Source: a virus
Lineage: Duplodnaviria > Heunggongvirae > Uroviricota > Caudoviricetes
Length of the DNA: 4,470 nucleotides
IMG/VR virus record: IMGVR_UViG_2698536618_000011
Coordinates: 1-4,470 of that record
Strand: one strand, 5' to 3'
The notes beneath the pieces are model-generated. The model worked only from the letters and a program-made list of their open reading frames with translations, was not told where the DNA came from and did no database searches. Both the position numbers and the translations under genes were made by a program. Of this stretch, positions 3,902 through 4,470 are shown in pieces (position 1 is the first letter of the stretch; the number at the start of each line of letters is the position of its first letter).

Positions 3902-4054
3902 CTAATCGCCTGATGCTTTCTTTTTCAGCAACGGGAAAGCAACAACCACCACACCCGCCACCAGCACACCGTCAGCCAGCACTGACATTATCCGGCTGCT
4001 GAAGTCCACCATCACCACCAGAAACAGCAGGAGCGCAACCACAGCCAGACGCAT
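3902..4054 (-). CDS. small hydrophobic protein, 49 aa, predicted two TM segments (MRLAVVALLLFLVVMVDFSSRIMSVLADGVLVAGVVVVAFPLLKKKASGD)
   Basis: ATG at 4054-4052 lies 8 nt downstream of the TerB stop on the same strand, and TAG at 3904-3902 closes a 49-codon frame that I translated by hand. It has two long Leu/Val/Ala stretches and a KKK C-terminal tail. It is missing from the ORF track only because it is under 60 aa. There is no strong Shine-Dalgarno, so translation would rely on coupling to the TerB gene. Confidence 0.35.
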   Translation of the reverse strand: MRLAVVALLLFLVVMVDFSSRIMSVLADGVLVAGVVVVAFPLLKKKASGD

Positions 4055-4062
4055 TTTTACCG

Positions 4063-4470
4063 TCACAGATGATTCTCCAGACGAAGGCCCAGAACACCGG
4101 CAATCTCTTCCAGCACCTTGCGCTCTTCCGGCTCTATTTCGCCGTCTGCTTCGGCAATGGCCACCGCCACATCCAGCACGTCTTCCGCTTCACGCGTATC
4201 GTGTTTCACATCCTCGATCTCACGTAACGCCGCTCGACGACCAATTTTAAAGTTCGTATCCAGCTGACCGATAATGGTTGCGCTAATCGCATTAATTTCT
4301 GACGTAAACGCGGACAACGCAGGCTGGTTACGCAAGATCTGCTCGATCTTCGCTTTCTCTGAAGCCTCACATTCACCATCTGCATAGGCCACCAGATAGG
4401 CAGCATTAATAACCGCCTGTGCCAGATCGCGTTTCTCAAACTTTTTAATTTCAGTTGCTGCTCTGCGGGT
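4063..4470 (-). CDS. TerB-domain (tellurite-resistance TerB family) protein, 5'-partial; the N-terminus lies beyond the window edge
   Basis: The frame stays open with no stop from the window edge at 4470 to TGA at 4063-4065; the track start at 4392 is an internal GTG. Translation (...EIKKFEKRDLAQAVINAAYLVAYADGECEASEKAKIEQIL...DVAVAIAEADGEIEPEERKVLEEIAGVLGL) shows two helical repeats, each with an acidic xADGE motif followed by an EEK/EER helix, which I recognise as the TerB fold. Family call is from recall, not a search. Confidence 0.7.
   Translation of the reverse strand, partial: TRRAATEIKKFEKRDLAQAVINAAYLVAYADGECEASEKAKIEQILRNQPALSAFTSEINAISATIIGQLDTNFKIGRRAALREIEDVKHDTREAEDVLDVAVAIAEADGEIEPEERKVLEEIAGVLGLRLENHL

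Follow-up and report, generated by a model that had tools for sequence, protein, structure and literature searches.

Introduction

TerB domains are known from several anti-phage systems as well as from the tellurite/stress operon, and TerB proteins have been described as membrane-associated or amphitropic. Among the anti-phage systems, Shango (SngA), Bunzi (BnzA) and Dionysus (DinB) contain TerB domains, for which a role in 'membrane surveillance' has been proposed; this recurrence in defence loci was correctly noted in a preliminary description of the DNA analysed here. The closest described relatives of our locus are the tciA and tciB genes of phage P1, of which tciB has carried its name since the annotation of the P1 genome, the tci designation having been given by homology and referring to tellurite, colicin and cell-division phenotypes. 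The P1 pair lies downstream of the C1-controlled ban promoter/operator, on the same strand, and is transcribed during P1vir infection. As P1 tciA, tciB and a further gene, tciC, were non-essential in a CRISPRi screen, any benefit that they confer must be conditional.

Here we describe a window of 4,470 nucleotides (positions 1 to 4,470 of IMG/VR virus record IMGVR_UViG_2698536618_000011), whose minus strand carries a TerB-family gene followed by a small hydrophobic open reading frame (ORF). The pair is the lambdoid version of P1 tciA-tciB, and is therefore already known, having been named and annotated before; for annotation, the gene pair itself offers nothing new. It does represent about the simplest genetic handle on the action of a TerB domain at the membrane, and the useful outcomes of the analysis are a corrected start codon, a near-universal stop/start overlap, the exchange of the small membrane partner in Pseudomonas phages, arguments against toxin-antitoxin activity and against defence of the lysogen alone, and a structured tciA leader without an Rfam match.

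Genomic context of the gene pair

As previously described, both ORFs lie on the minus strand upstream of nanS-p (SASA + DUF1737 + DUF6645; 3527..1773). A comparison locus (L001), 99.9% identical to the window, supplied the full-length TerB protein of 143 aa, and the neighbours of the pair in this and related loci include Q, a methylase, RelE/HTH, tRNAs, nanS-p and a holin, with a RelE/HTH toxin-antitoxin pair immediately upstream in L001. Lambdoid phages carry the pair on the late strand, with Q on one side and the holin on the other. An STnc100-family sRNA gene (3664..3836, minus strand; Rfam RF02076, 108 bits against a gathering score of 47, E=8.5e-24) begins 65 nt downstream of tciB and is followed by an intrinsic terminator (3639..3621, minus strand). 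Of 20 further loci tested, 5 have the same sRNA after tciB, making it a frequent but not obligatory neighbour. The terminator scan placed terminators on both sides of the pair, and a scan for consensus matches found no sigma-70 site upstream of it. Two promoter/terminator units were also observed between nanS-p and the holin; neither matched an Rfam family, and no assignment to PasA/PasC or AgvB/AsxR was reached for these units.

The position of the pair bears on the possibility that TciB is an antiholin-like or holin-modulating small membrane protein regulated by TciA, the two genes thus setting the timing of lysis. The small membrane protein character of TciB would suit such a role, as would the placement of the pair between Q and the holin, shortly upstream of the latter, in Fostie, Actinobacillus pPE4 and Klebsiella phage 1 LV-2017. 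However, P1, D6, N4-like and jumbo phages carry the pair in early or tRNA-rich regions, a long way from their lysis genes, and in the window itself tciB is set apart by the sRNA gene and by nanS-p (1.75 kb) from the holin, which is a distinct gene of P21 type (1324..1118). TciB also gave no holin-family match, DUF3927 being its sole match, and we consider a lysis-timing function very improbable.

A TerB-family protein encoded by tciA

The larger gene, tciA (4063..4470, minus strand), runs off the right end of the window, which holds its 3' 135 codons and the stop codon TGA (4065..4063); the first eight codons and the leader lie beyond. Assignment to the TerB family, proposed in the preliminary description, is supported. 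The 135 residues encoded in the window match Pfam PF05099 (E=1e-16, 61.7 bits against a cutoff of 24.4), the full-length protein from L001 matches phrog_632 (tellurite-resistance) in the PHROG database (E=1e-69), and a TciA profile aligns with the solved TerB structure 2JXU (E=1.4e-19) over positions 13-142, which is nearly the full length. The AlphaFold2 (AF2) model contains seven helices (pLDDT 88), and Foldseek matched it best to two TerB-like structures, 2h5n (prob 1.0) and 2ou3. TciA is an acidic protein of 143 aa with an all-helical TerB fold, whose N-terminal helix is very basic. In its two ADGxxxxxE motifs, D39, G40 and E46, together with D117, G118 and E124, are invariant or nearly so in the alignments, and a dN/dS of about 0.05 shows that the gene is under purifying selection.

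The RefSeq product name of this gene, 'tellurite resistance TerB family protein', together with its clear homology to ter-operon TerB, invites a literal reading in which the pair confers resistance to tellurite or colicins. Such names were given by homology only, terZ, terA, terC, terD and terE are all absent nearby, and a phage-genome paper has argued likewise for solitary phage terB, so that this reading can be given hardly any credence.

tciB is a coding gene of the DUF3927 family

The small ORF is a genuine gene under selection, far beyond what would be expected of a chance ORF, as the preliminary description had supposed. It matches Pfam DUF3927 (PF13064; E=4.8e-20, 71.7 bits against a cutoff of 25) and phrog_1470, 'TciB-like' (E=1.6e-24), and its homologues comprise 55 distinct proteins, of which the sole stop-containing member is a remnant. 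The median dN/dS among these proteins is 0.28, with a third-position excess. The ORF had been called unannotated and liable to be missed by annotation pipelines, which proved mistaken on both counts: Pfam, PHROGs and RefSeq PGAP all recognise it, PGAP annotates it in a 54-aa form (WP_000216690.1, 'DUF3927 family protein'), and the gene is named tciB in phages P1 (where the name is of long standing) and JLK-2012.

The hydropathy profile of TciB shows two hydrophobic segments, at about residues 7-20 and 26-47, separated by a conserved D-F-S/T-S/G-R/K motif; a strongly conserved polar motif of the protein is DF[TS]..ADG. Both termini are basic, with K/R residues flanking the outer ends of the hydrophobic segments. 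A hairpin with two transmembrane (TM) segments, as suggested in the preliminary description, would fit this profile and the positive-inside rule, but the AF2 monomer differs, forming a single uninterrupted helix over residues 2-51 (pLDDT 92), and hence did not confirm the hairpin.

Start codon and translational coupling

The tciB gene probably comprises 54 codons (4066..3902, minus strand), from a GTG start (4066..4064) to a TAG stop (3904..3902), rather than the 49 codons from an ATG given previously. The alternative ATG, at 4054, lies 8 nt after the tciA TGA and would yield 50 aa; close TciB homologues (VTVKLRL...) lack an ATG at codon 5, which points to GTG as the likely start. The GTG overlaps the tciA stop codon in the sequence GTGA (4063..4066, minus strand), and a Shine-Dalgarno (SD)-like GGAG within the 3' end of tciA (4075..4078, minus strand) is located 8 nt upstream of it. 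This motif may act as the SD sequence of tciB, although the same bases encode a conserved Leu-Glu/Asp; CTGGA(G/A/T) is kept at this position in most junctions. Such overlaps are close to universal in the family. Among 106 TerB-TciB junctions, 61 show a 4-nt stop overlap with an inferred ATG, GTG or TTG start (GTG in 58 of them) and 39 a 1-nt overlap by ATG, so that start and stop overlap in about 100 overall. As the tciB GTG overlaps the tciA stop, ribosomes terminating on tciA would be expected to re-initiate on tciB, leading to co-production of the two proteins.

Pairing and distribution of TerB and TciB

A tblastn search of phage genomes with the 54-aa peptide retrieved two records only, since the low-complexity filter masks the peptide; loci for the pairing counts were therefore obtained by TerB-based retrieval, pattern-based locus searches and a narrow TciB alignment. 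Retrieval through TciB alone gave 99 loci; in 96 of these TerB abuts TciB on its upstream side, the other three appearing to be remnants. In the reverse direction, 11 of 16 diverse TerB-carrying phages encode TciB directly after TerB; TerB without a small membrane ORF was seen in Vibrio K481, Sinorhizobium phiM5 and Pseudomonas Cygsa01. In two Pseudomonas phages, a different small membrane protein, with one TM segment, replaces TciB at the same overlapping position, which supports the view that TerB requires a small membrane partner. Apparent TerB-DUF3927 fusions were of no value as Rosetta-stone evidence, two of them (P0175 and P0221) being double-frameshift artefacts of draft assemblies and a third (P0138) a chimeric call on a phosphatase. 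Taken together with the overlap counts, these data support a TerB-TciB pair that looks obligate, is translationally coupled and occupies the cargo region between Q and the lysis genes of a lambdoid prophage, and thereby the two-gene module in a cargo slot envisaged in the preliminary description.

The pair occurs in many phages and in about half of complete E. coli genomes. It is nevertheless dispensable in a common E. coli prophage lineage, in which a TerB gene disrupted by a frameshift and a nonsense codon stands beside an intact TciB ORF (about 28 of the 80 viral contigs retrieved). This widespread variant is also informative about whether TciB is a toxic membrane peptide neutralised by TciA, as had been raised in the preliminary description. 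TciB is small, very hydrophobic and adjacent to a soluble partner, and the RelE/HTH pair just upstream in L001 demonstrates that cargo of this type occurs at the locus. The intact TciB beside a disrupted TerB in this variant, however, speaks against such a function; moreover, a downstream, translationally coupled TciB would be made only together with TciA, the pair is present in virulent phages, and what TciB conserves is the polar motif described above and not generic hydrophobicity. A toxin-antidote function is on these grounds highly unlikely.

The distribution of the pair extends to virulent N4-like (Schitoviridae) and jumbo (Machinavirus) phages, which is of consequence for a role in defence or superinfection exclusion, whereby tciAB would be expressed in the lysogen and membrane surveillance would block incoming phages or colicins, on the model of the TerB-containing Bunzi, Shango and Dionysus systems and of the Phi/PacB phenotypes of the plasmid ter cluster. 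Several observations are compatible with this explanation: TerB domains are part of validated defence systems with a proposed surveillance role, the tci name itself derives by homology from tellurite, colicin and cell-division phenotypes, and the pair occupies a classic moron slot with terminators on either side. No known defence model matches the pair, however: in PADLOC-DB v2, TerB gave only a partial match to PDC-S48 (E=0.0035), TciB gave none, and no match was above threshold. The pair has no nuclease, helicase or pore-forming effector beside it, it is on the Q-dependent late strand with no promoter-like site detected in the consensus scan, and strictly virulent N4-like and jumbo phages, which make no lysogens, conserve it. 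Defence on behalf of the lysogen is thus a minority explanation that we consider unlikely, and conservation in virulent phages argues in particular against a purely lysogen-protective or exclusion role, the latter having been put forward previously.

The same distribution could alternatively reflect counter-defence, in which TerB and its membrane partner would mimic or titrate host TerB sensors (Shango SngA, Bunzi BnzA, Dionysus DinB or the Ter stress system) and so prevent abortive responses during infection. Retention of the pair by many types of virulent and temperate phages, the use of TerB domains by host defence systems and the non-essentiality of the pair on a laboratory host, which is typical of anti-defence genes, are in keeping with this proposal. 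The phage TerB is, however, closest to ter-operon TerB and not to the TerB-N/TerB-C architectures of defence proteins, which makes counter-defence improbable. The enterobacterial hosts of these phages are not known to be common carriers of Shango or Bunzi, which is a further argument against it.

A structured leader upstream of tciA

An RNA leader precedes tciA immediately beyond the end of the window; it is well supported by covariation as an element in its own right and pairs with the tciA ribosome-binding site. Its predicted helices are an anti-SD helix, a GGUGAGCC:GGCUCACC helix and a CCACAGAG:CUCUGUGG helix. No credible Rfam family was found for the leader at E<=10, nor did a search of the literature bring up a relevant description of such a leader or motif. 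Leaders of the same type precede other prophage cargo genes, in lambdoid prophages and in jumbo phages, including those for an antirepressor, KilA-N and a TAXI-type binding protein as well as further cargo, and the element may be a means of translational control that prophage cargo genes have in common. The neighbouring STnc100 sRNA was considered as a regulator acting on the leader and rejected, the RNAduplex prediction being no better than those for shuffled sequences (10 of 300 as good).

A possible role in lytic growth

That the pair is retained in P1 as well as in virulent phages of the N4-like and jumbo types indicates that the module most likely serves the phage's own lytic development. 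We therefore favour, tentatively and at somewhat less than even confidence, a coupled inner-membrane module, made up of a soluble TerB protein and a small membrane partner, that serves lytic growth. TciB would form a helical hairpin in the inner membrane, with both basic ends in the cytoplasm, and would act as a membrane partner or anchor for TciA through a physical interaction between the two. The two polypeptides would in this way recreate the design of DjlA, YebE and the defence proteins, in which a membrane tether keeps the TerB domain at the cytoplasmic face. Lacking a recognisable promoter, tciAB would be expressed as part of the Q-dependent late transcript, between terminators, and the structured leader, by pairing with the ribosome-binding site, would damp translation of tciA. 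The module may then sense or buffer membrane-proximal ion or envelope stress, keeping the infected cell productive until programmed lysis. The alternative partner in Pseudomonas phages, of which only about eight residues are exposed to the cytoplasm, sits awkwardly with the anchoring part of this model. Tellurite resistance or protection of the lysogen by the module is unlikely. A more specific version, in which a minimal, self-contained phage TerB membrane module blunts host membrane-surveillance or abortive responses during lytic growth, as a device against defence or against stress, and a pseudoknotted leader that sequesters the ribosome-binding site gates its translation, is a long shot, and its functional half is speculation.

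Comparison with known systems

The TerB-containing Shango, Bunzi and Dionysus systems resemble the pair in associating a TerB-like domain with membrane proteins. They differ in being host-encoded, multi-gene systems with ATPase/helicase or pore-forming effectors, whereas the pair lacks an effector, matches no defence model and is encoded by phages, virulent ones included.

In DjlA and YebE, a TerB-like domain is held on the cytoplasmic side of the inner membrane. The C-terminal half of TciA shows weak matches, below cutoff, to DjlA (NCBIfam, E=1e-6) and to DUF533, the family of YebE (Pfam, E=4e-5), and the NCBIfam search of the pair gave nothing above threshold. Both proteins carry the transmembrane segment and the TerB-like domain on one polypeptide, whereas here the segment would be provided by a separate, coupled one, and no J domain is present.

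The TerB protein of the ter operon (terZABCDEF; Klebsiella TerB, 2JXU) shares with TciA full-length homology, the seven-helix architecture and the acidic motifs. TciA, by contrast, stands alone with its small membrane partner and, with no TerC, TerD, TerE or TerZ nearby, a function at the level of the ter operon cannot be assumed.

The closest likeness is to tciA-tciB of P1 (also present in P7, D6 and JLK-2012), with which the pair shares a TerB-family protein of about 141-143 aa (42% identical) and, directly after it, a 54-aa DUF3927 protein (44% identical) whose start overlaps the preceding stop. The Pfam and PHROG families are the same, and in both cases functions have been assigned by homology only. 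P1 and D6 differ in having a third small membrane ORF, tciC; no hydrophobic ORF follows position 3902 on the minus strand of the window, and TciC-like ORFs were found in P1 and D6 only. Finally, the P1 genes belong to the C1-controlled ban operon, among tRNA genes, whereas the pair described here lies in a Q-dependent late region, with an STnc100 sRNA gene downstream and a different 5' leader.

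Genomic context of the tciA–tciB pair

The window covers part of the late region of a lambdoid prophage, and its minus strand carries every gene. From its right end, which truncates the TerB-family gene tciA (4470..4063, −), the order continues with the small hydrophobic DUF3927 ORF tciB (4066..3902, −), an STnc100-family sRNA 65 nt downstream of tciB (3836..3664, −; Rfam RF02076, 108 bits) and its terminator (3639..3621, −), the nanS-p esterase gene (3527..1773, −; SASA, DUF1737, DUF6645), a P21-type holin (1324..1118, −), a DUF1327/YdfR protein (1113..769, −) and a lysozyme (718..185, −). 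The lambdoid pair lies on the late strand with terminators on either side, and no sigma-70-type site was detected for it. The preliminary description was right to place it in a cargo slot flanked by the late regulator and the lysis genes, since in two homologous loci it lies between Q and the holin. The 99.9%-identical E. coli O39:NM locus (L001) has the order Q antiterminator, hypothetical gene, DNA methyltransferase, RelE/HTH pair, TerB (143 aa), DUF3927 (54 aa), esterase and holin, and the second locus has Q, tRNA genes Ile-Arg-Arg, two small genes, TerB, DUF3927, esterase and holin. Other ter genes are absent around the pair in both, which argues against a literal role in tellurite resistance. 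Of the 5426 complete E. coli genomes compared, 2868 gave megablast matches to a 941-nt segment, with ≥80% coverage in 769.

Phage tRNA genes repeatedly adjoin tciAB, in P1, D6, jumbo Machinavirus phages and lambdoid prophages (retrieved loci L002 1616–1769 and 3201–3276; L004 886–1354 and 2947–3277; L116 2960–3209; L026/L028 ~2825–2942), a closeness that may reflect only a common accessory-gene hot spot. Of 20 other loci, 5 also have STnc100 downstream of tciB, Klebsiella and Enterobacter prophages among them. The sRNA has been related to the PasD sRNAs in a 2026 preprint, which names TerB among the conserved neighbours of PasA/PasC. The gap between nanS-p and the holin contains two tandem plus-strand units antisense to the phage genes (1505–1623 and 1672–1771, +), each combining a TTGACA −35 box and an A/T-rich −10-like box with a terminator made of an AGCCAGC...GCTGGCT hairpin and a T-run, and, on the minus strand, a strongly folding element that also has a terminator (1375–1480, −; z=−3.2). 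None of the three matched Rfam; they sit where PasA/PasC sRNAs are reported (esterase–pasA/C–holin).

Identity and coding status of TciA and TciB

The TerB fold proposed for TciA was borne out by profile and structure comparisons. The 135 residues inside the window match PF05099 (E=1e-16), the full-length protein matches phrog_632 (E=1e-69), and the family profile matches the solved structure of Klebsiella TerB (2JXU) over nearly its full length (E=1.4e-19). The AlphaFold2 model is a seven-helix bundle (pLDDT 88, pTM 0.82) whose nearest PDB structures are the TerB-like proteins 2h5n and 2ou3. Residues 1–20 are modelled as a low-confidence, very basic helix (MFGIFKKKTRRAATEIKKF), which would be in keeping with published reports that TerB proteins associate reversibly with membranes.

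TciB, previously described as unannotated, is a known protein: it matches Pfam DUF3927 (PF13064, E=4.8e-20) and phrog_1470 ‘TciB-like inhibition of cell division or resistance to colicin’ (E=1.6e-24), the identical protein is annotated in RefSeq (WP_000216690.1, ‘DUF3927 family protein’), and both genes are labelled tciA and tciB in phage JLK-2012, as they are in P1. The ‘tellurite/colicin/cell division’ names were assigned from homology only. An exhaustive HMMER search found only 53 DUF3927 clusters among 1.84 billion cluster representatives, and the family is therefore small and phage-restricted.

The small ORF had been read as 49 aa beginning 8 nt after the TerB stop. An ATG does lie at 4054, 8 nt past the TGA, but the ORF from it has 50 codons, and we favour a start at GTG 4066, whose overlap with the TerB stop reads GTGA and which yields 54 aa, because the nearest homologue group starts VTVKLRL... 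without an ATG at codon 5 and because K4 and R6, which precede the first hydrophobic segment, are almost invariant. Across 106 TerB–TciB junctions, 61 show a 4-nt overlap between the inferred tciB start and the TerB stop (GTG in 58 of these) and 39 a 1-nt overlap (TGATG/TAATG), the remainder being ≤3 nt apart or overlapping by 8 nt. Judged from sequence, this overlap, with a GGAG 8 nt 5′ of the GTG, is a classic signature of translational coupling. Coding selection on the small frame was confirmed: 55 distinct TciB proteins, diverging to ~40% identity, retain the core LLFLVV.VDF[TS].[KR].MS.LADGVLVAG...WP..K without frameshifts, median pairwise dN/dS is 0.28 (516 pairs; 0.05 over 243 pairs for TerB), and column entropy is highest at third codon positions (41/24/75).

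TciB has two strongly hydrophobic segments (residues ~7–20 and ~26–47) separated by D-F-S/T-S/G-R/K, with K/R bordering both outer ends and a conserved Asp-Gly within the second, and by the positive-inside rule it would probably form a hairpin, N-in/C-in, whose periplasmic turn is very short. These segments agree with the two-TM peptide originally proposed, but the AlphaFold2 monomer is a single unbroken helix (residues 2–51, pLDDT 92), and for this reason we infer the hairpin with good rather than full confidence. No holin family was matched by TciB, which speaks against a lysis-timing function for the pair.

Co-occurrence of TerB and TciB

Retrieval with TciB alone yielded 99 loci, comprising 80 IMG/VR contigs and 19 one-genome-per-species contigs (Buttiauxella, Pseudescherichia, Rosenbergiella, Franconibacter, Erwinia, Pantoea, Enterobacter and E. 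albertii). A TerB HMM match abuts the TciB ORF in 96; the other three, with an internal stop, a degenerate sequence or a fusion behind a methyltransferase without a start codon, look like remnants. TerB homologues are present in 131 phage records, and in 11 of 16 sampled TerB phages a DUF3927 ORF is placed at −8 to +3 nt relative to the TerB stop. Temperate P1 and D6 belong to this group, as do lambdoid Fostie and Klebsiella phage 1 LV-2017, an Actinobacillus phage, the virulent N4-like Pollock and FSL SP-076, Pantoea LIET2 and the Erwinia and Salmonella jumbo Machinavirus phages. No small membrane ORF follows TerB in Vibrio K481, Sinorhizobium phiM5 or Pseudomonas Cygsa01, while in Pseudomonas phages AF (L006 1932–2153, unannotated) and Zuri (L011 1943–2146, gp47) the TciB position holds a protein unrelated to DUF3927, with one N-terminal TM segment and a conserved two-cysteine tail (CxWYGxQTERETxYAxFVGCMV); the AF ORF overlaps the TerB stop by GTGA. 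The pair thus recurs well beyond this prophage, with TciB depending on TerB and TerB usually, not always, accompanied by a small membrane protein.

Strictly virulent N4-like and jumbo phages keep the pair, which favours a function in the lytic growth of the phage itself over defence or exclusion on behalf of the lysogen. A defence role also sits poorly with PADLOC, in which no defence model matches TciA or TciB. A toxin–antidote pair, in which TciB would be a toxin requiring TciA, is hard to reconcile with the ~28 of 80 TciB-retrieved IMG/VR contigs in which TerB is disrupted (frameshift in an A-run and TAG at codon 46) beside an intact TciB; these contigs are probably largely clonal E. coli prophage copies. 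This tciA-inactivated E. coli variant is widespread (L044–L076 type loci, e.g. L055 2070–2501, with the A-run frameshift at codons 6–8), and many truncated ‘TerB’ database entries of 97–120 aa stem from it.

A structured leader RNA upstream of tciA

The window ends at tciA codon 9, and a conserved ~140-nt leader lies outside it, directly 5′ of the tciA start codon in L001 (5837–5982), with further copies at L007 1364–1506, L003 1345–1494, L120 7235–7368, L145 8847–8996, L211 4472–4621 and L112 4848–4974; the window itself contains no copy. It occurs in lambdoid prophages of Escherichia, Klebsiella, Pantoea, Buttiauxella, Franconibacter and Pseudescherichia and in Erwinia and Salmonella jumbo phages. 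The predicted structure comprises a 5′ hairpin, a long helix around GGUGAGCC:GGCUCACC and, at the base, pairing of CCUUU with AAAGG, the tciA Shine-Dalgarno; an additional helix, CCACAGAG:CUCUGUGG, can form only as a pseudoknot or in an alternative fold. In a MAFFT alignment not fitted to structure, 90.9% of cells are paired under the full structure including the additional helix (slid controls 40–50%), with compensatory changes in 9 of 35 pairs. Among 76 covariance-model hits, 95.2% of cells are paired under the model structure (slid controls 32–51%), with compensatory changes in 18 of 26 pairs, a level reached by 0 of 500 shuffles; the additional helix, which lies outside the model, gives 94.7% (slid controls 36–67%) and 5 of 8 pairs. 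The computed cost of forcing open the paired Shine-Dalgarno is 3–6 kcal/mol at 37 °C in five variants. The leader has no Rfam 15 match at E≤10, and a limited literature search found no description of it.

A pattern scan of IMG/VR returned 120 loci, 90 with the full leader, and TerB is the next gene in 82 of these. The same leader, compensatory changes included, also precedes a gene for a secreted TAXI/NMT1_3-type binding protein, as well as an ANT/KilAC antirepressor, a KilA-N protein and several unknown genes, and because it precedes TerB and other cargo genes alike it seems to be a common cassette controlling the translation of prophage cargo. The leader might act as a thermosensor or riboswitch, or be targeted by a trans-acting factor. 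The TAXI/NMT1_3-family solute-binding protein gene follows tciAB in a Salmonella jumbo phage and in several prophages takes the tciA position directly behind the leader (L003 2233–3027; L120 7363–8208; L186 459–1304), hinting that the two cargoes are functionally or regulatorily linked.

Proposed function and comparison with known systems

The preliminary observation of the pair stands, with its start, length and annotation status corrected, and its interpretation is supported in part: a coupled TerB–TciB pair with a hydrophobic TciB would fit a two-gene membrane-associated module. We regard the identity and architecture of TciA–TciB as highly probable. We suggest more tentatively, at slightly below even odds, that they could form a translationally coupled, inner-membrane-associated module that senses or buffers membrane-proximal stress while the phage develops; a counter-defence decoy is a further rival explanation, besides the lysogen-defence or exclusion, lysis-timing, toxin–antidote and tellurite-resistance readings discussed above. 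The gene pair is already known and annotated, and the only new items are the leader RNA and the alternative membrane partner of Pseudomonas phages, both outside the window.

The named counterpart is in phage P1, where tciA (141 aa), tciB (54 aa) and tciC (35 aa) are annotated one after another, on the strand of the C1-controlled ban promoter/operator and downstream from it. In a CRISPRi screen none of the three P1 genes was essential, and transcripts of all three occur during P1vir infection. Phage D6 has an unannotated 37-aa membrane ORF resembling P1 TciC (MMDFWTYIDKNPGWSLLFLLVIVYG...; L005 2096–2209) that overlaps the tciB stop. The window pair differs from P1 and D6 in lacking this third ORF, with no tciC equivalent in the window. 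DjlA and YebE have a membrane-tethered TerB design, and TciA–TciB may represent the same design split over two proteins.
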